DNA from: Patescibacteria group bacterium
Lineage (GTDB): Bacteria > Patescibacteriota > Patescibacteriia > Patescibacteriales > UBA12465
Length of the DNA: 64,000 nucleotides
Direction: 5' to 3'
Assembly (NCBI GenBank): GCA_041656935.1
Contig: JBBACQ010000001.1
Location: forward strand, 93,459 to 157,458
Shown here piece by piece: positions 4,504-36,617 of this stretch (positions are counted from its first letter, which is position 1; each line of letters begins with the position of its first letter). A program made the position numbers and the translations under genes. The notes under the pieces were generated by a model. That model saw only the letters and a program-made list of their open reading frames with translations, did no database searches and was not told the DNA's origin.

Positions 4504-5313
4504 TTACTCTTTCTTCTTTTTCTTAGGTTTTATTGGTTCTTCTTCTTGGTCTTCTTTAATTGATTCTTTCTTCTTTTTTTTCTCGACAACGATTTCGTCT
4601 TTAGAATCAACTTCAACTGAACCATTAACATTAACTAGGGCTTTAAATTGATCAATCAGAATAGCAACCGATTGGTCAAAAGCTTCTTCTAAGGAAATAG
4701 TGCCATCAGTCTTTATTTCTAAAATAAGTTTATCCCAATTAGTCATCTTACCAACACGAACGTTTTCAACTTTATAACTAATACCTAAAATCGGTGAAAA
4801 AATTGAATCTACTTCGATATAATCAACCTCTTTAACATCTTTTTTGGTTTTATCGGCTAAGAAATAACCTCGACCATTAGCTACATAAATCTCCATAATT
4901 AAGCTACCAGTAGGGTCAGTGATATTTCCTAGAACTAAATCGGAGTTAACTATTTCTATTTGACTATCTTTTTTAATATCCTTGGCTGTCACTTGCTTCT
5001 TCCCCTGAACGTTTAATTCTAATTTTAAAATTTCCTCGGTATCAGTTAATATTTTTAATCGTAATTGTTTTAAATTCAAAATAATATCTAAAATATCTTC
5101 CTTAACTCCCGGCAAGGCCATGAATTCATGTTTAGCCCCTTTAATTTTAACCCCTACTACCGCTGAACCTGGTAAAGATGACAATAAAACTCGACGTAGA
5201 GCATTTCCGATTGTATTTCCATACCCAGGATATAATGGTTCCACGATAATTGAGCCATCTAAATTATTATCATGTTTGAAATCAATCTTTTTTGCTAAGG
5301 CTATATTTTCCAT
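4504..5313 (-). CDS. rpoA: DNA-directed RNA polymerase alpha subunit, N-terminal domain only plus K/E-rich tail
   Basis: GYGNTIGNALRRVLLSSLPG.A...HEF..LPGVKEDILDIILNLK is the alpha-NTD. The sequence after ...DQFKALVN is low-complexity (EKKKKKESIKEDQEEEPIKPKKKKKE). Confidence 0.9.
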   Translation of the reverse strand: MENIALAKKIDFKHDNNLDGSIIVEPLYPGYGNTIGNALRRVLLSSLPGSAVVGVKIKGAKHEFMALPGVKEDILDIILNLKQLRLKILTDTEEILKLELNVQGKKQVTAKDIKKDSQIEIVNSDLVLGNITDPTGSLIMEIYVANGRGYFLADKTKKDVKEVDYIEVDSIFSPILGISYKVENVRVGKMTNWDKLILEIKTDGTISLEEAFDQSVAILIDQFKALVNVNGSVEVDSKDEIVVEKKKKKESIKEDQEEEPIKPKKKKKE

Positions 5314-5356
5314 ATTTTTTTTAATTAAAATTAATTAAATTTAAATATTTTAAATT

Positions 5357-5992
5357 TTATTTTGAATAAAACTCAATAATCATGTGGGTCTTAACATTAG
5401 AAGGTAAATCCTGGGGTCTAGGTTCATGCAAAACCTTAGCGGACAACTCTTTAATATCTACAGCTAACCAACTCTTAAGCTCCGGTGATAGATTCTTTAA
5501 TTTTTCTGGTAAATCTCTGAAATACTTATTATTTTTAGAGCTTTTTTTAATTTTAATAATTTGTCCAATTTTAGCTTGATAAGACGGCACATCAACTTTT
5601 CTATCATTAACCGAAAAATGACCATGATTAACTAATTGTCTGGCCAAACTTCTAGAAGAAGCAAAACCAGCTCTATAGATAAGACTGTCTAGACGCATTT
5701 CTAAATGTCTTAAAAAATTAGGACCAACATCACCACCCTTTTTCTGAACTTTATTAAAAGATGTTCTAAATTGATTTTCATTTAAACCATACATCTTTTT
5801 AGTTTTTTGTTTTTCATTTAATTGCAAACCGTAATCACTAGATCGCTTTTTACCCTTAGGTCCATGAAAACCAGGAGGATAATTCCTCTTAACCATCGCG
5901 CATTTAGTTGATAAACAACGCTCTCCTTTCAAAAATAGCTTCTCTCCAATCCGACGACATTGTTTACATTTTGAATCTAGATTTTTTCCCAT
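5357..5992 (-). CDS. rpsD: 30S ribosomal protein S4
   Basis: CKQCRRIGEKLFLKGERC...YGLQLNEKQK...RLDSLIYRAGFASSR..ARQLVNHGH: S4 zinc-ribbon plus S4 RNA-binding domain. Confidence 0.95.
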   Translation of the reverse strand: MGKNLDSKCKQCRRIGEKLFLKGERCLSTKCAMVKRNYPPGFHGPKGKKRSSDYGLQLNEKQKTKKMYGLNENQFRTSFNKVQKKGGDVGPNFLRHLEMRLDSLIYRAGFASSRSLARQLVNHGHFSVNDRKVDVPSYQAKIGQIIKIKKSSKNNKYFRDLPEKLKNLSPELKSWLAVDIKELSAKVLHEPRPQDLPSNVKTHMIIEFYSK

Positions 5993-17015: not shown

Positions 17016-17036
17016 TTTATCTTAATAATAAAAAAA

Positions 17037-17064
17037 GCCTCGGGTAGTATTAGCAAACCGAGGC
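17037..17064 (-). terminator. rho-independent terminator of the high-GC orphan gene
   Basis: GCCTCGG-14 nt-CCGAGGC. On the minus strand it is followed by TTTTTTT. Sits between convergent genes. Confidence 0.7.
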
Positions 17065-17108
17065 ATAATAATATTAAAAGAGCTTAAAAAAAACAAAGGG
17101 ACAAAGCC

Positions 17109-17768
17109 TTAAGAGCTAATTTGCGAGAGCGCGAAGGCAAAACCGCCAAGACCATTCCACCTGCGACCAGGACCGCTATAGTTCGTACTCAACCAGGAAC
17201 CACCATCAAGGCAATCAACGCGAAGCAATCTCAAGTCGCCATTAGAATCTTTGATGGACTTATGCATGACTGCAATCCATGTCAAACCCATAGCTTCTTC
17301 AAGCTCCTTATCAGAGAAAACCTCACGGATAAGGCAGGCAACTTCAGAGTTGGGTATTTTGAATTTACGCCTAACAGCAAAGGCGCGAATCTTCCTAGTA
17401 ATCCGATCACTATCCTCGAAAAGCAGGCCCTTGAGGACAGCTATCTCAGTTGTCACTCCCGAGGTCGGCTTGAATTCTTTGGAACATAATATTTTCTTAG
17501 CATAATCGCTAACTCGGAACCCTTTGCCTTCCAAGCGGGCAATCCATTCTTCACCAGTAGTACCATCACTGGTGACTGAGAAATAGATGATTCCGTCTTT
17601 CTCACGCCACCTTGGCTTGATTAAGGAAACCTGTAATTCACCAGCGTTCATCATGCGCACGGCTTCTTTGGGATCAATAATCCCGGTTTGCAACATGACA
17701 TTTTTAACCATAGCATTAAGTTTACCGGTTTCAATCCCGGAAATCAAAAAATTAGTTTTATTACTCAT
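17109..17768 (-). CDS. hypothetical protein, compositionally atypical (about 50% GC)
   Basis: 219-aa ORF with a strong SD (AAGGAGG) about 6 nt upstream of the ATG. Hand counts give 30/60 and 31/60 G+C in lines 17101 and 17401, versus 13/60 in flanking line 16741. I recognise no family. Confidence 0.75.
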   Translation of the reverse strand: MSNKTNFLISGIETGKLNAMVKNVMLQTGIIDPKEAVRMMNAGELQVSLIKPRWREKDGIIYFSVTSDGTTGEEWIARLEGKGFRVSDYAKKILCSKEFKPTSGVTTEIAVLKGLLFEDSDRITRKIRAFAVRRKFKIPNSEVACLIREVFSDKELEEAMGLTWIAVMHKSIKDSNGDLRLLRVDCLDGGSWLSTNYSGPGRRWNGLGGFAFALSQISS

Positions 17769-17837
17769 TATAACCTCCTTGCGCTATATTGCGCTTTTTT
17801 AATTTGCCCTATTCCGGAGCCAGAACTACAATCTTTA

Positions 17838-17889
17838 TGATTACAGCTATAAAACACCTTCATAATAAAGAATCTCATAGCTGTAATCA
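17838..17889 (-). promoter_or_regulatory. perfect 13-bp stem hairpin in the 5' leader of the orphan gene
   Basis: TGATTACAGCTAT-26 nt-ATAGCTGTAATCA, located between the predicted promoter and the RBS. Confidence 0.5.
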
Positions 17890-17911
17890 ATTTTTAAAAG
17901 TACAACAAATT

Positions 17912-17940
17912 ATTATAACATAATAGTGATAATAAGTCAA
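17912..17940 (-). promoter_or_regulatory. near-consensus sigma-70-type promoter for the orphan gene
   Basis: On the minus strand: TTGACT (17940-17935), 17-nt spacer, TATAAT (17917-17912), about 145 nt upstream of the ATG. Confidence 0.5.
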
Positions 17941-18016: not shown

Positions 18017-18090
18017 CTTGCCAGCAATTCAAAATTTCAGGATATTCGCTATAAAATTTTTCATGCCACTTTTTCTAAAAAGTGCCATAA
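18017..18090 (+). repeat. single copy of the 77-nt 'arm + GCCAC hairpin' repeat unit
   Basis: CTTGCCAGCAATTCAAAATTTCAGGATATTCGCTATAAAATTTTTCATGCCACTTTTTCTAAAAAGTGCCATAA is near-identical to the units at 30807-30959. Confidence 0.8.
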
Positions 18091-18094
18091 AAAA

Positions 18095-18945: not shown

Positions 18946-19800
18946 CTATAGGTGAACAAATAAACACAAGTTCACTGCTTTGCTCTCGTGTTTATAACCA
19001 AGAGCGAATAGTCCTCCTCCTATTTTTCCAACTTCAAATGCTTTAGAAAATCCAATTTCCATTCTTGGAAAATTAGAAGTTTCGGTTTCGTATCCAGCGT
19101 CCAGATACAATCCGATTCCCTTAGCAATATCGAAATTAGAAAAATTAGCGATTATACTTGAGCCCCCAATGTTCTCAAAGGAAATTACATTATATAATCT
19201 CCCCACTGAGAAAACAGTGGCCACACCTATTTTTTCATCACAGACAGAATAATATGAAGCTAGTTCTATCTTTTTGAAAGAAAACTTGGCATGATATTCC
19301 GCCTTATCACCCCTCTCAGCTATCCCAAGACCGAAAGATGCTCCAGAATTAAAACGATAAGTTGTTTTAATCCCTAAAGCTCCTCCAGGAATTCTGGCCT
19401 GAGACCAAGTCTCAAAGTGGCCGTTGGCCGTAGGAGGAAGTGGTCTCAATTCTGTAGAAAGTGTCGCCATGCGACCAAACTCCACACTAAATTTTTCTTT
19501 TTTATTGTGAAGTTTAACAGAAAAAGAGTTTAAAGGTAGGCTATTACCCCCCGAATAATCAAAAGTACCGAATGACTTTATTTTCAAAAAAGGTAAAGCC
19601 TGCCAAGAAACGATGGCTCCGACACGAAAAGAGTAGAAGCTTTCTTGAAATGGTTTTTCAACTCGAAAAGAAAAACCATTGATTACACCAGCGTAAACGC
19701 TGGTAGTGGCAGTACTATCTTTCGAAACTAGGGGCAGAATCTGAGCCCAGGAAAATTGGGCAACTGCAACAAGAGTAATAATAAAAAGAACTTTTTTCAT
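18946..19800 (-). CDS. secreted protein with porin/OMP-like beta-barrel character
   Basis: Signal peptide MKKVLFIITLVAVAQFSWA|Q. The mature part is Gly/aromatic-rich with alternating hydrophobic dyads (e.g. GALGIKTTYRF, ASFGLGIA, AKFSFKKIELASYY, IGLYLDAGYE, LFALGYKH). No SD upstream. GC is patchily elevated (34/60 in line 19381). Confidence 0.6.
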   Translation of the reverse strand: MKKVLFIITLVAVAQFSWAQILPLVSKDSTATTSVYAGVINGFSFRVEKPFQESFYSFRVGAIVSWQALPFLKIKSFGTFDYSGGNSLPLNSFSVKLHNKKEKFSVEFGRMATLSTELRPLPPTANGHFETWSQARIPGGALGIKTTYRFNSGASFGLGIAERGDKAEYHAKFSFKKIELASYYSVCDEKIGVATVFSVGRLYNVISFENIGGSSIIANFSNFDIAKGIGLYLDAGYETETSNFPRMEIGFSKAFEVGKIGGGLFALGYKHESKAVNLCLFVHL

Positions 19801-24548: not shown

Positions 24549-24620
24549 TTGTGTTTATCGTGAACATTCAAAAATTTTGGAAAAAATATTTTTTAGGCCA
24601 CTTTTTTAGAAAAAGTGCCA
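24549..24620 (+). repeat. variant copy of the arm + hairpin repeat unit
   Basis: TTGTGTTTATCGTGAACATTCAAAAATTTTGGAAAAAAT resembles 31083-31121. It is followed by GGCCACTTTTTTAGAAAAAGTGCC, ending 10 nt before the GT4 ATG. Confidence 0.7.
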
Positions 24621-24630
24621 TAATAAAACT

Positions 24631-25692
24631 ATGAAAATAGCAATAATCAATAACCTATACAAACCCTATCACAAAGGTGGAGCCGAGAAGGTTTGCGAAA
24701 GACTAATCACCGAATTAGAAAAAAACGGTCATTTTTGTTTTATCGTCACCACTAAACCAAAAATATTAACCGACACAAACCAAAATCCCAAGACCTATTA
24801 CCTCGATTCCAACTATTATAACTTAGGAAAAAAATCACTCCCCTATCGCTTTTTCTGGCAAATCGGAAATATTTTTAATTTTGGCCAAGGAAAAAAATTA
24901 AAAAAAATATTACAACTAGAAAAACCCGACTTAATTATATCTAATAATTTAATGGGCATCGGCTTGAAAACTTTCCAAATTATTAAAAAATTAAACATTA
25001 AACATACCCACATCTTACACGACATTCAATTGATCCACCCCTCTGGTTTAATAATTTTTAAACAAGAAAAAATTATCAACACTCTACCTTCCAAGATTTA
25101 CCAAAACATTAGTCGTTATTTTTCTGGCTCACCAGAAAAAGTAGTTTCCCCTTCTAATTGGCTATTACAAGAACATATTAAAAAAGGCTTTTTCAAGAAA
25201 AGCGAAAAAATAGTTCAGCCCAACCCTCAGCCATTCGGAGAAAAAAAAGAAATTATTAGAGAAAAAAATAAAAACACAACTGACTTTTTATTTATTGGCC
25301 AAATAGAAGAACATAAAGGAATAATTTTCCTAATTGAAACTTTTAAAAAAATAGAAAACGCCAAAATTAATCTTAAGATTATTGGTGACGGAAAATTAAT
25401 AGATAAAATAAAATTAATAGCTCAAGATGATAACCGTATCAAAATTTTAGGACTAAAAAATAAAGAAGATGTGACTAAAGAATTAATCGAAGCTGATTGC
25501 TTAATAGTTCCCTCGCTTTGTTATGAAAACTCCCCTACGGTAATTTACGAAGCTCAGCATTTTAATCTACCGATTATCGCTTCAAATATTGGCGGTATTC
25601 CAGAATTACTACTAAAAGAACCAAACTCATTATTTAAACCCGGGAATGGAAAAGAACTTATCGAGAGAATAAATAAGTTCGCACCGAAATAA
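24631..25692 (+). CDS. glycosyltransferase family 4
   Basis: VPSLCYENSPTVIYEAQHFNLPIIASNIGG: GT4 E-x7-E-like region. Confidence 0.8.
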   Translation: MKIAIINNLYKPYHKGGAEKVCERLITELEKNGHFCFIVTTKPKILTDTNQNPKTYYLDSNYYNLGKKSLPYRFFWQIGNIFNFGQGKKLKKILQLEKPDLIISNNLMGIGLKTFQIIKKLNIKHTHILHDIQLIHPSGLIIFKQEKIINTLPSKIYQNISRYFSGSPEKVVSPSNWLLQEHIKKGFFKKSEKIVQPNPQPFGEKKEIIREKNKNTTDFLFIGQIEEHKGIIFLIETFKKIENAKINLKIIGDGKLIDKIKLIAQDDNRIKILGLKNKEDVTKELIEADCLIVPSLCYENSPTVIYEAQHFNLPIIASNIGGIPELLLKEPNSLFKPGNGKELIERINKFAPK

Positions 25693-30647: not shown

Positions 30648-30806
30648 AATGGTTTGTTTTAATAATAATTAGTTATTTTATTATACTATAATAAAGTTTT
30701 GGAGTAAAGAATAACCTTTTTGTGCTATTTTTTTAGGAAAAATACCCACTTGACCATCTCTGGCGAAAAAAATTAGCAAACTAAAGTTTTTTTTAAAAAT
30801 AATAAT

Positions 30807-30959
30807 TTTTTCATGCCACTTTTTTAGAAAAAGTGGCCCAAAAATCGCCAGCAATTCAAAATTTCAGGACATTCGCTATAAAGTTTTTCATGCCACTTTT
30901 TTAGAAAAAGTGGCCCAAAAATCGCCAGCAATTCAAAATTTCAGGACATTCGCTATAAA
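30807..30959 (+). repeat. tandem duplication, 2 x 77 nt (arm + GCCAC hairpin)
   Basis: 71 nt starting at CATGCCAC (30812 and 30889) are identical by my alignment. Each unit has the hairpin GCCACTTTTT-TAG-AAAAAGTGGC (30815-30837 and 30892-30914). Confidence 0.9.
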
Positions 30960-31062
30960 AGCTAGTAAAATTTAGAACTCGGATGAGCTTCGCTCATCCT
31001 CAAACAGCTAAATTTTACACGCTTTTTACGCTTATGTCTAATCTGAAATTTTTCAAAGCTGG
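30925..31062. repeat. extended imperfect palindrome A (about 138 nt), candidate MITE or structured RNA
   Basis: Outer arms CCAGCAATTCAAAATTTCAGGACATTCGC / ACGCTTATGTCTAATCTGAAATTTTTCAAAGCTGG; inner stem 30965-30975/31008-31018 (11 bp, all Watson-Crick); apical hairpin GGATGAG-CTTCG-CTCATCC. Confidence 0.7.
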
Positions 31063-31090
31063 CAAGTAAAAAAAATTAATTTCTTGTTTT

Positions 31091-31225
31091 CTTGCGAACA
31101 TTAAAAAATTTTGGGGAAATTGCGAGTGTAGAAACCTTGCAAAATTTGGTTGTTTGAGGCGTAGCCGAGTTCTAAATTTTGCTAGGTTTCATAACGAGCA
31201 ATCCAAAATTTTTTAGTTCGCTAAG
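31091..31225. repeat. extended imperfect palindrome B (about 135 nt), inverted homologue of A
   Basis: Outer arms 31091-31114/31203-31225; inner stem 31131-31147/31174-31190 (17 bp, 1 mismatch). The reverse complement aligns to A through AAAATTTAGAACTCGG...CCTCAAACA.C.AAATTTT. Confidence 0.7.
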
Positions 31226-31344
31226 TTTTTTTGGACACTTTTTTTGTTAAAAAAAGTGTCTTAATAAATAAGTAAGTATACAAAAAACTTTAGTTCGCTA
31301 TTTTTTGGATGCTTTTTTTATTAAAAAAGTGTCTTAATAAATAA
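31214..31344 (+). repeat. diverged tandem repeat, again with 77-nt period, each unit carrying a hairpin variant
   Basis: TAGTTCGCTA at 31214 and 31291. Hairpins GACACTTTTTTT..AAAAAAAGTGTC (31234-31260) and GATGCTTTTTTT..AAAAAAGTGTC (31308-31333); both are followed by TTAATAAATAA. Confidence 0.75.
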
Positions 31345-35603: not shown

Positions 35604-36617
35604 TTATTTGGTTGCTAAAATACTTCTCTTATAAGAATCTAAATTGTCTAGAGCGATACCCGTTCCTTTGGCTACACATAATAAAGGATCATCAGCAATA
35701 TAAGCTGACACACCTAAAGCTTGAGCAAATAATTGATCGATATTCCTCAACAAAGCAGTTCCACCAGTTAAAACTATGCCCTTATCAATAATATCAGCTA
35801 TTAACTCAGGTGGTGTTTGTTGAAGTATTTTTTTAGCTGTATTTAGAACAACTTCTAATTCTCCAGAAATAGCTGAGGTAACATCATTACTATTAACCTC
35901 GATGGTTTTTGGAAGACCACTAACAACATCCCGACCATTTATTTCCATAAATAACTTATTTTCTTCATCTAAAAACAAGGCTGACCCAACTTTTATTTTC
36001 ATTTCCTCGGCGGTTCTTTCTCCAACAACTAAACCATATTTTTTTCGGACATACTCTAAAATAGCTAAATCTAATTTATTTCCACCCACCCGAACGGAGG
36101 TTGATGAAACTACCCCACCTAAAGAAATAACAGCCATTTCTGAGGTTCCGCCACCAATATCAACCACCATGTGACCAGTGGCCGAACTAATAGGAATATT
36201 AGCTCCGATGGCCGCCGCTACCGGCTCTTTGATAATATAGGCCGCCTTAGCTCCCGCTGCGATAGTAGCCTCAATAACTGCCCGTCTTTCCGTTGATGAA
36301 ATACCAGCCGGAACAGCTACCATGACCTCAGGCCTAAAGATTCTGATTTTCCCTAAAGTTTTATTAATAAAATAACGAATCATCGCTTCAGTAGTACGAT
36401 AATCAGCAATAACTCCCTCTTTTAATGGTTTCAAGGCCACAATAGTATCAGGAGTTCTACCTAACATATCTTTAGCTTCGTTCCCGACTGCTAAAACTTT
36501 ATTATCGCCAATAGAAACAGCTACGACACTCGGTTCGTTGATAACCACACCTCTTTTAGGTAGATATACTAAGGTATAAGTTGTGCCTAAATCTATTCCG
36601 ATTCTTTTAACCCACAT
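35604..36617 (-). CDS. mreB: rod-shape-determining actin homologue MreB, second paralogue
   Basis: IGIDLGTTYTLVY...NEPSVVA...MVVDIGGGTSEMAVISLGG...VLTGGTALL. Confidence 0.9.
   Translation of the reverse strand: MWVKRIGIDLGTTYTLVYLPKRGVVINEPSVVAVSIGDNKVLAVGNEAKDMLGRTPDTIVALKPLKEGVIADYRTTEAMIRYFINKTLGKIRIFRPEVMVAVPAGISSTERRAVIEATIAAGAKAAYIIKEPVAAAIGANIPISSATGHMVVDIGGGTSEMAVISLGGVVSSTSVRVGGNKLDLAILEYVRKKYGLVVGERTAEEMKIKVGSALFLDEENKLFMEINGRDVVSGLPKTIEVNSNDVTSAISGELEVVLNTAKKILQQTPPELIADIIDKGIVLTGGTALLRNIDQLFAQALGVSAYIADDPLLCVAKGTGIALDNLDSYKRSILATK

Follow-up and report, generated by a model that had tools for sequence, protein, structure and literature searches.

Diversity-generating retroelements (DGRs) that serve several targets are known from Treponema and Legionella, and a 2017 study by Paul et al. 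in Nat Microbiol reportedly also deals with Patescibacteria-restricted DGRs. Roux et al. 2021 (PMC8144416) described a CPR-restricted DGR clade whose targets carry no recognisable domains; surveys of the surroundings of the reverse transcriptase (RT) miss remote targets, and for variable repeats (VRs) lying away from the RT the same authors cite their refs 9 and 13. In the DGR of Bordetella phage BPP-1, arranged as mtd VR - avd - TR - brt with TR for the template repeat, the Rfam RT motif RT-10 lies between TR and brt (PMC5737381).

We compare with these systems a gene found in a stretch of 64,000 nucleotides from a Patescibacteria group bacterium, which is called the window throughout. In our reading, to which we give a probability of roughly 80%, the ORF encodes a stand-alone DGR variable protein, whose VR has been rewritten by adenine-directed mutagenesis as a remote (‘trans’) target. 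The gene and its relatives resemble the Patescibacteria DGR ‘clade 2’ (Roux et al. 2021, PMC8144416) in being cellular and confined to Patescibacteria, in an RT of the RVT_1 type with a DGR motif, in a VR at the 3′ end of a small protein without recognisable domain, signal peptide or transmembrane segment, and in the adenine-specific TR/VR mismatches of the homologues of the window gene. What sets the window copy apart from ‘clade 2’ is that TR and RT are missing beside it. Remote targets, where several kilobases or a contig boundary separate the VR gene from TR and RT, occur within the same gene family, in Falkowbacteria; there the donor TR has been located, whereas none was located for the window gene in the 64 kb. 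With the BPP-1 DGR the family would share A-mutagenic reverse transcription and a directional replacement of the 3′-terminal VR, and both have a GC-rich, A-free VR 3′ end and a hairpin downstream of the VR. The differences are that the family is cellular and not phage-borne, that its target is not a tail fibre, that no conserved Avd-like ORF was detected in its cassettes, that its hairpin is terminator-like and lies ~45-80 nt after the stop codon, and that the Rfam RT motifs (RT-10, for example) have no match in ten complete family cassettes. The features of the locus are listed in the table.

Table. Features of the stand-alone target locus, in window coordinates.
Feature	Coordinates	Strand	Details
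Predicted sigma-70-type promoter	17912..17940	-	-35 TTGACT 17940-17935; 17-nt spacer with TG; -10 TATAAT 17917-17912
Conserved structured leader, ~137 nt	17769..17905	-	P1 17889-17838 (~20 bp); P2 within 17826-17806; P3 GCGC/GCGC 17794-17781
Shine-Dalgarno AAGGAGG	17774..17780	-	5 nt before ATG, read from sequence
Probable DGR variable-protein (target) gene, 219 aa, ATG start	17109..17768	-	Window member of a Patescibacteria-wide family
Probable VR, 128 nt, codons ~174-216	17121..17248	-	Aligns column for column with 38 family TRs
Intrinsic-terminator-like hairpin	17030..17064	-	Stem GCCTCGG/CCGAGGC, 14-nt loop, T7

In NCBI, the window protein is matched exactly by MFA5644021.1 (locus tag WC928_00625). 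A preliminary description of this DNA had called it an orphan of unknown function with no family recognised. That holds for the curated libraries, scans of Pfam, NCBIfam, PHROGs and PADLOC giving nothing usable, but homologues are abundant: a word-indexed search returned 802 at E<=1e-3 (the best 120 of them 56-81% identical) and an exhaustive search at least 2,268 clusters at 50% identity, all of them in Patescibacteria, and 201 relatives in GTDB species genomes are spread over many lineages of that group. The function, too, can now be narrowed to that of a DGR variable (target) protein. The same description had mentioned three long antisense ORFs over the gene, and we find them on the plus strand (17121-17489, 17251-17505 and 17587-17802); they are by-products, because substitutions among orthologues track the minus-strand frame, with 12/7/33% variable sites at codon positions 1/2/3 outside the VR. 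This codon pattern rules them out as genes, and outside the VR the minus-strand frame is under purifying selection.

A VR/TR pair of ~128 nt, 80-93% identical, occurs in 38 of 80 related loci, where the VR makes up the final ~43 codons and the TR lies ~470 nt downstream of it; in these pairs, 599 of 650 VR/TR mismatches fall on TR adenines. About 30 loci have, on the same strand and downstream, an ORF of ~330 aa for a DGR-type RT, with an RVT_1 match and the motifs LGNLTSQ and YADD. Over ~95-100% of its length, the window protein shares 52-68% identity with the proteins of loci that have VR/TR and RT (L003, L004, L023 and others), a full-length homology that places it in this family of DGR targets. 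A complete cassette runs from a promoter and a ~135-nt leader through a target of ~218 codons ending in the 128-nt VR, then a terminator hairpin, to the TR, ~350 nt after the stop codon, and the DGR-type RT, ~400 nt beyond. The RT would copy the TR RNA with errors at adenines, and the error-bearing cDNA would replace the VR, so randomising ~15-20 AAY-type codons of the C-terminal ligand-binding surface. Hypervariable C-termini are found in other lineages within clusters of 90% identity, with 24 and 23 variable columns out of 48.

Not all copies come with this machinery. Of the 63 loci whose downstream sequence extends over 2.6 kb or more, 31 have neither TR nor RT within 6 kb, and this share of about one half may be unexpectedly high. 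In Falkowbacteria (LCGL01000001), L006 has no TR of its own, but its VR is matched by the TR of L003 at a distance of 15 kb, and TR adenines account for 20 of the 24 mismatches. Family members from distant lineages differ in genomic context.

Closer to the window, two relatives carry the gene in the same context: P0002, with 81% aa identity and on a contig of 901,513 bp, and P0003, with 79% aa identity. The shared order is MTase - gene - DUF2304 - GT2 - 137 aa - MraY - FtsW - MurG - MurC - MurB. In the comparison of these three orthologues, VR substitutions affect 22 of the 31 TR-adenine columns and 20 of the 97 others (OR 9.4, p=1e-6), and the variable sites of the VR are distributed over codon positions 1/2/3 as 45/35/19%, a pattern opposite to that outside the VR. 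Nucleotide identity is 76-79% over the last ~140 nt and 86-90% upstream. The scaffold codons interspersed between the variable ones (GSWL, W, GFAF) stay fixed, while the codons derived from AAY vary at the 3′ end, as in the VRs of the family. The VR 3′ end, GGTTTTGCCTTCGCGCTCTCGCAA, is A-free and GC-rich and resembles an IMH, the element directing homing into the VR. From the VR, the expected TR (~128 nt) would have the skeleton NTTCNNATGGCGNNNNGNGNTTGNTTNGCGTTNNTNGNNNNGNTGNTGGTNCCTGGTTGNNNNCGNNCTATNGCNNTCCTGNTNNNNGGTGGNATNGTNNTGNCGGNTTTGCCTTCGNGCTCTCGCAA, where N stands for the TR-adenine positions.

A C-terminus might also diverge without any retroelement in the window lineage, through positive selection of the ordinary kind or because the constraint on a surface loop is relaxed, and the fact that no TR or RT was found for the window genome (in the 64 kb, or through the best 120 RT homologues) would suit that explanation. 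Such processes, however, do not account for variable columns that coincide with family TR adenines, for scaffold codons that stay fixed among them, or for the demonstrable DGR templating of the same region in 38 related loci, and we regard this alternative as very improbable.

The search for the partners of the VR gave the following results. In the 64 kb, neither blastn (word size 7) nor an A-degenerate regular expression (at least 40 nt) found a second copy of 17109-17260, tblastn with 25 family RTs gave a best E of 0.27, and the window holds no paralogue of the gene. In the syntenic relative L081, no RVT gene is called for 10 kb to either side of the gene, nor is one called on the shorter contig of L083, which covers ~4 kb upstream and ~9 kb downstream. 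Proteins at the two ends of the window led only to short Logan contigs. The best 120 RT homologues (at least 64% identical to a Falkowbacteria RT) include none on the 177,679-bp contig to which the 64 kb belong, none on the 901,513-bp contig and none from the same MAG, which is a weak negative. A 48-nt pattern built on the VR skeleton had no match in viral contigs and a single one in metagenome contigs, L087, which belongs to the same population and is 1,347 bp long; the metagenome scan is silent on the TR, since contigs that would match by construction are absent from the collection.

The scenario that we favour starts from what the window retains, a target module of promoter, leader, VR-bearing gene and terminator and nothing else of the cassette. 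This module has been inherited vertically between the methyltransferase gene and the DUF2304/GT2/mur-fts cluster, and its VR would have been rewritten after the window lineage split from the two syntenic sister lineages. If the rewriting followed the split and no TR or RT is local, the template and the RT would lie, or would until recently have lain, elsewhere in the genome, and the window gene would for this reason be a remote (‘trans’) target. From the pattern of substitutions, a trans-acting DGR probably did the rewriting. This DGR may be silent or already lost in the window lineage, because the VR, unlike those of the hypervariable lineages, is identical between the window and L087/P0391 (two independent assemblies of the population, with no heterogeneity between their consensus sequences); the sequence of P0002 was likewise assembled identically on 3 contigs and that of P0003 on 5.

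Taken further, the loss would leave a fossil: with TR and RT gone, the gene would survive in its own module as a binding protein of fixed specificity that is no longer diversified. We consider this possible, though doubtful. No TR or RT is found in the 64 kb, the best 120 RT homologues miss both long contigs, independent samples of each of the three syntenic lineages give one and the same VR for that lineage, and decayed remote copies do exist in the family, such as L008, with 13 mismatches at TR adenines and 12 at other bases. On the other hand, the divergence at A-sites and at codon positions 1-2 requires DGR activity after the split in at least two lineages, and the VR shows little erosion: in its core, the non-adenine columns differ between the window and P0002 at only 10 of 97, near the gene-wide background, and its A-free 3′ end is intact in the window gene. 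Moreover, the identity across samples comes from few samples, and from consensus assemblies that hide minor variants.

The composition of the gene had been part of a pattern taken as a sign of recent acquisition. With 44.5% G+C as against 31.3% for the window, it is indeed the strongest GC outlier, no other stretch of 660 nt in the window being as rich in G+C (mean 0.312, sd 0.034; ~4 sd), and its GC3 of 0.459 stands well apart from the 0.241 ± 0.030 of the other ORFs that reach 150 aa, 49 in number (z = 7.35); the earlier figure of about 50% is reached only in single 60-nt lines (up to 0.50-0.55, with flanking lines at 0.15-0.30). A horizontally transferred orphan accessory gene would explain such an excess by its foreign origin, and the lack of matches in curated protein libraries and the varying context of the family among distant lineages would go along with it. 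We find this hardly credible. The gene has thousands of homologues, it is syntenic in P0002 and P0003, and its divergence among the three lineages is comparable to that of the neighbouring genes, so that the claim of recent acquisition falls. The excess of G+C is a family trait and specific to the target gene, which exceeds its flanks by 11.6 points on average in 80 loci, whereas the co-resident RT gene stands at -4.6 points and the spacers of the cassettes are not GC-rich either; a mobile element of foreign composition was rejected on account of the RT. Carriage by phages or plasmids was also rejected, as the family is essentially absent from phage and plasmid collections and counts one relative among 2.9 million viral contigs.

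Another source of the excess could be translational selection for C-ending codons in a very highly expressed gene. C3 is 0.39 in family targets and 0.18 in RT genes, and 0.23 in the window gene against 0.10 in its window neighbours, a doubling in both cases, and the gene has a near-consensus promoter, a strong RBS, a 5′ hairpin and a terminator. Even so, the ribosomal-protein, rpoA and MreB genes of the window do not exceed a GC3 of 0.30, and codon selection could account for the composition but not for the identity of the gene; as an explanation of the locus we judge it unlikely. Two further ideas were rejected: that the high GC results from an avoidance of adenine, as T3 is depleted too and C3 doubled, and that the coding sequence is an unusually structured RNA (z = -1.74).

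The idea of a self-contained, independently expressed unit has fared better, since promoter, leader, RBS and terminator are conserved together with the gene in the syntenic relatives and in the family. The predicted promoter matches 11 of 12 consensus positions in AT-rich DNA where promoter-like sites are frequent (34 found as against 17 expected in 4 kb); both hexamers are kept in L081 and L083, exactly where alignability begins, and the DNA farther upstream is unalignable between the window and either relative. The Shine-Dalgarno AAGGAGG, noticed from the start like the promoter, is kept in 11 of 13 aligned family leaders, with AAGGAGA in L001 and a divergent or missing motif in L022 and L042. 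The GC stem and T7 of the terminator are present as had been described; taken alone, the fold is marginal (z = -2.0). A consensus terminator scanner missed this hairpin because of the length of its loop. It is conserved in L081, and it is positionally homologous to the strong hairpin and T-run that follow the stop codon in most family loci, with or without a TR. The hairpin may conceivably serve as a DGR target-site hairpin as well. The repeat reported beside the promoter at 18017-18090 exists, at 18020-18093; it is a dispersed repeat unrelated to the unit, and was rejected as a component of it. To judge from these signals, promoter, leader and terminator would drive independent and probably strong expression of the window gene.

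The leader is better conserved than the gene behind it: it is ~97-100% identical among the three orthologues, as against 86-88% for their coding sequences. Its predicted fold has an MFE of -45.9 kcal/mol (z = -5.5), and the hairpin first described as a perfect 13-bp stem is real and longer than that, with ~19-20 pairs. Throughout the family, the leader has ~135 nt and three hairpins. With a covariance model (R1), it is recovered immediately before the family gene in 70 loci, with scores of 55-148 bits; in the alignment to the model 97.3% of cells are paired, compared with 31-48% in slid-partner controls, and 22 of 27 pairs have changed on both sides. Rfam 15 has no match to the leader, and only two tRNAs reach the gathering threshold in the whole window; the best sub-threshold scores over the leader are noise, at 24 bits both for TtnuHACA12 (threshold 80) and for rimP on the other strand (threshold 47), and ten complete family cassettes gave nothing in Rfam except tRNAs. 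No mention of a conserved structured leader or of a GC3 excess specific to the target was found in the accessible DGR literature.

It is conceivable, if rather improbable, that the leader with its three hairpins represents a new kind of cis-regulatory RNA reserved for the DGR variable-protein genes of Patescibacteria, and that, together with the GC3/C3 excess and unusually conserved synonymous sites, it reflects nucleotide-level selection on a target module that spreads and persists independently of the RT. The leader could be a ligand-, protein- or RT-responsive element gating the expression of the variable protein.

As for the protein itself, AF2 models have pLDDT values of 75 and 80 (80 for the window protein), and the top Foldseek matches (PDB twice, BFVD) are mostly C-type lectin domains, at E values no better than 0.04 and with TM-scores that stay under 0.35; profile comparison with PDB sequences gave nothing. 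The window protein would be a variable binding protein, perhaps with a C-type-lectin-like fold.

An unannotated ‘hypothetical protein’ thus becomes recognisable as a probable DGR variable protein, and its locus illustrates that a gene of deviating composition in a small genome of the symbiont type is not necessarily a product of horizontal transfer. Within the cassettes, the richness in GC3 is limited to the target gene, and no current model accounts for that. The covarying leader, absent from Rfam, offers a handle on how the expression of variable proteins is controlled. Were the target module truly independent of the RT, about half of the DGR targets in Patescibacteria would be invisible to RT-anchored surveys. 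Such surveys probably undercount targets in any case, because about half of the family copies stand alone and the window copy bears the marks of adenine-directed rewriting, and trans-targeting may be common in Patescibacteria.

The gene under study is a stand-alone variable-protein target of a Patescibacteria diversity-generating retroelement (DGR), a known kind of gene. Its ORF exists as the preliminary description had reported it, and the encoded protein matches NCBI MFA5644021.1 (WC928_00625) exactly, on a 177,679-bp MAG contig. The window, with a G+C content of 31.3%, looks like a Patescibacteria (CPR) chromosome, in which ribosomal-protein and RNA-polymerase-alpha genes lie close to the start and MraY, FtsW, Mur genes and MreB are neighbours of the gene.

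Curated libraries (Pfam, PHROGs, NCBIfam, PADLOC) yield no family for this protein. It is not, however, the orphan it had been called: a word-indexed search returned 802 homologues, and an exhaustive profile search 2,268 clusters at 50% identity (790 with E<=1e-30). The best 120 of the 802 homologues are 56-81% identical to the window protein, nearly all of 195-260 aa (most of 213-224), and any name given to them is "hypothetical". GTDB contigs (one genome per species) contribute 201 relatives from many Patescibacteria lineages, including Falkow-, Nomura-, Wolfe-, Uhr-, Lipton-, Komeili-, Yanofsky-, Azam-, Vogel-, Adler- and Brennerbacteria. At the C-terminus of the family, invariant scaffold residues (GSWL ... 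P ... W ... GFAF) are spaced by hypervariable positions, the pattern of a DGR variable repeat (VR), which is borne out by the related loci.

In 38 of 80 such loci (L001-L080), the 3'-terminal ~128 nt of the gene are repeated ~470 nt downstream with 80-93% identity, and because 599 of the 650 mismatches between the two copies sit at adenines of the downstream one, the latter is the template repeat (TR). About 30 loci carry, ~400 nt past the TR and on the same strand, an ORF of ~330 aa with an RVT_1 match and with LGNLTSQ and YADD motifs, typical of DGR reverse transcriptases (RTs). In cassettes of the L003 type (e.g. L003:6624-8499), neither the stretches from target to TR and from TR to RT nor the flanking ORFs of 70 aa or more showed a conserved Avd-like accessory ORF, and the ~400-nt TR-RT spacer matched no Rfam RT motif. 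AF2 models (pLDDT 75 and 80) gave structural matches mostly to C-type lectin domains; since all of them fall below significance, this fold is a candidate only.

Nowhere in the 64 kb of the window is there an RT (tblastn E no better than 0.27), a further copy of the VR, even with any base allowed opposite adenine, or a paralogue of the gene. Many family members stand alone in this way: of the 63 loci with 2.6 kb or more of sequence downstream, 31 have neither TR nor RT within 6 kb, 25 have both, five only the TR (L036, L039, L043, L046, L056) and two only the RT. In these last two (L001, L020) the RT directly follows the family gene, with no detectable VR/TR pair. The incomplete cassettes may be decaying or rearranged DGRs. 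A Falkowbacteria contig (LCGL01000001) carries a complete cassette, L003, together with two stand-alone copies, and trans-targeting operates in the family, since the L003 TR fits the VR of one of them, L006, at a distance of 15 kb; TR adenines account for 20 of the 24 mismatches. The VR of the other, L008, is more decayed, its mismatches being divided between TR adenines (13) and other bases (12).

Recent acquisition, as had been proposed, is contradicted by syntenic orthologues in two relatives, P0002 (81% amino-acid identity, on a 901,513-bp contig) and P0003 (79%, on five Logan contigs). Both share with the window the order methyltransferase - gene - DUF2304 - GT2 - 137-aa ORF - MraY - FtsW - MurG - MurC - MurB, with Pfam families assigned to the syntenic genes, and the gene has diverged from theirs to an extent resembling that of its neighbours. 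A 284-aa ORF of the window (18946-19800), with a hydrophobic N-terminus, has the second-highest third-position G+C (GC3) and no Pfam match; the P0003 locus (L083) has an ORF of equal length and position, likewise without a Pfam match, and the P0002 locus (L081) two unrelated-looking ORFs in its place. Neither does the family travel with phages or plasmids, as had been suggested for checking: phage and plasmid collections yielded essentially nothing, and 2.9 million viral contigs a single relative, L091 (IMGVR_UViG_3300009537_000070, 5012-5476). This copy stands alone, with no TR or RT in the 11.5 kb around it and a G+C of 0.40 against 0.31 in its surroundings, and its contig could be cellular DNA wrongly classed as viral.

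Between the window and the two orthologues, nucleotide identity is 76-79% in the last ~140 nt and 86-90% upstream of the VR. In the 128-nt VR core, 22 of the 31 TR-adenine columns (adenine in the family's TRs) vary among the three orthologues, against 20 of the 97 others (OR 9.4, p=1e-6), and the enrichment is significant in all three pairwise comparisons. Variable fractions at codon positions 1/2/3 are 45/35/19% in the VR and 12/7/33% in the rest of the gene; the latter reflects purifying selection, and the former is the signature of mutagenised AAY codons. Divergence at TR adenines and at the first two codon positions therefore indicates that adenine-directed mutagenesis hit the syntenic locus after the lineages split. 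TR and RT are absent nearby at all three loci. The VR of the window recurs unchanged in a JGI contig assembled independently from its population (L087, P0391; 99.85% identical over 1,347 nt), and P0002 and P0003 were assembled identically on three and five contigs, respectively; as a positive control, 24/48 and 23/48 C-terminal columns vary inside single 90% clusters of two other lineages. Among the 120 best RT homologues, all at least 64% identical to a Falkowbacteria RT, none comes from the MAG of the window, a weak result, since the cognate RT could be only ~60% identical. We put the chance that the gene remains the target of a DGR present at another site in the genome at a little under one in two, and regard recent loss of the DGR from the lineage as a somewhat less likely alternative.

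All the expression signals that had been named are found in the sequence, the main hairpin of the leader (P1) being real but of ~20 pairs instead of 13.

Features of the gene and of its surroundings in the window
Feature	Position	Strand	Support or remark
Gene	17109-17768	-	219 aa
VR	17121-17248	-	128 nt, 3' end of gene
Promoter TTGACT - 17 nt (with TG) - TATAAT	17940-17912	-	11/12 consensus matches
Leader	about 17905-17769	-	folds far better than shuffles, z = -5.5
Hairpin P1	17889-17838	-	
Shine-Dalgarno AAGGAGG	17780-17774	-	sequence
GCCTCGG/CCGAGGC + T7 hairpin	17064-17030	-	sequence
284-aa ORF	18946-19800	-	
MreB	35604-36617	-	
Dispersed repeat	18020-18093; 30815-30968; 24577-24632		
Dispersed repeat, weaker copies	30801-30844; 31043-31082; 31197-31269		

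Promoter and leader are ~97-100% identical across the three syntenic orthologues, and the intergenic DNA upstream is unalignable. With a covariance model based on 13 leaders, the element is found immediately upstream of the family gene in 70 loci (55-148 bits), across the Patescibacteria lineages sampled. It comprises three hairpins: P1, with a loop at times holding an inserted stem; P2, short; and P3 (GCGC/GCGC), which adjoins the Shine-Dalgarno sequence. In the model's alignment 97.3% of cells are paired, against 31-48% in slid-partner controls, and in this alignment, fitted to the model, both-sided changes occur at 22 of 27 pairs (254 cells). The leader has no match in Rfam 15; RT-associated RNA motifs adjoin RT genes, not target genes (Weinberg et al. 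2017, PMC5737381). The same motif precedes two divergent proteins, at L015:4850-4971 and L076:4838-4969, the latter with 27% identity to the window protein, the former with no significant similarity to it; as both C-termini look VR-like, the leader may associate with DGR-target genes beyond one protein family. Most of the 80 loci have, 20-110 nt past the stop codon, short TTAG/TTTGA-type direct repeats followed by a strong GC-rich hairpin of 13-15 bp with a T-run, of which the window terminator is the local form; repeats and hairpin may act in DGR target recognition or solely in termination. The repeat previously described as abutting the promoter (at 18017-18090) lies outside the DGR-target module: it is a copy, just past the methyltransferase stop codon, of a dispersed repeat, ~75 nt long and containing a palindrome (GGCAC TTTTT AG AAAAA GTGCC-like), which also occurs as two tandem units in a repeat-rich intergenic region (~30.8-31.3 kb) and as inverted copies around 24.6 kb.

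The G+C of the ORF is 44.5%, below the "about 50%" first given, and still the highest of any 660-nt stretch in the 64 kb, ~4 sd over their mean; its GC3 is 0.459, against 0.241 +/- 0.030 in 49 other long ORFs (z = 7.35). The three plus-strand ORFs overlying it are indeed present, and are by-products of this high G+C, since substitutions among orthologues track the minus-strand frame. Housekeeping genes of the window, among them MreB and the ribosomal-protein genes, are well under the target's GC3. MreB forms a second G+C peak (~0.41), but its GC3 is ordinary (<= 0.30), unlike that of the DGR target gene. Across the 80 loci the G+C of the gene is on average 11.6 points above that of its flanks. 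Within complete cassettes only the target (+10 points outside the VR, +22 in the VR) and the TR (+12) are raised relative to flanking DNA, the spacers being at about 0 and the RT at -4.6. Enrichment at third positions of targets is mainly in C (0.39 vs 0.18 in RT genes), at the expense of A and T alike; avoidance of adenine is not the cause, because T is lost as well. Synonymous-site conservation is 0.81, against 0.56-0.78 in syntenic neighbours, and the coding sequence shows no unusual structure (z = -1.74). The GC3 excess may stem from translational selection, from GC-biased gene conversion between paralogues or from constraint at the nucleotide level. As a whole, the preliminary description was largely right in what it observed and wrong in reading an orphan, recently acquired gene; noteworthy across the family are a leader RNA absent from Rfam and a GC3 excess specific to the target gene.
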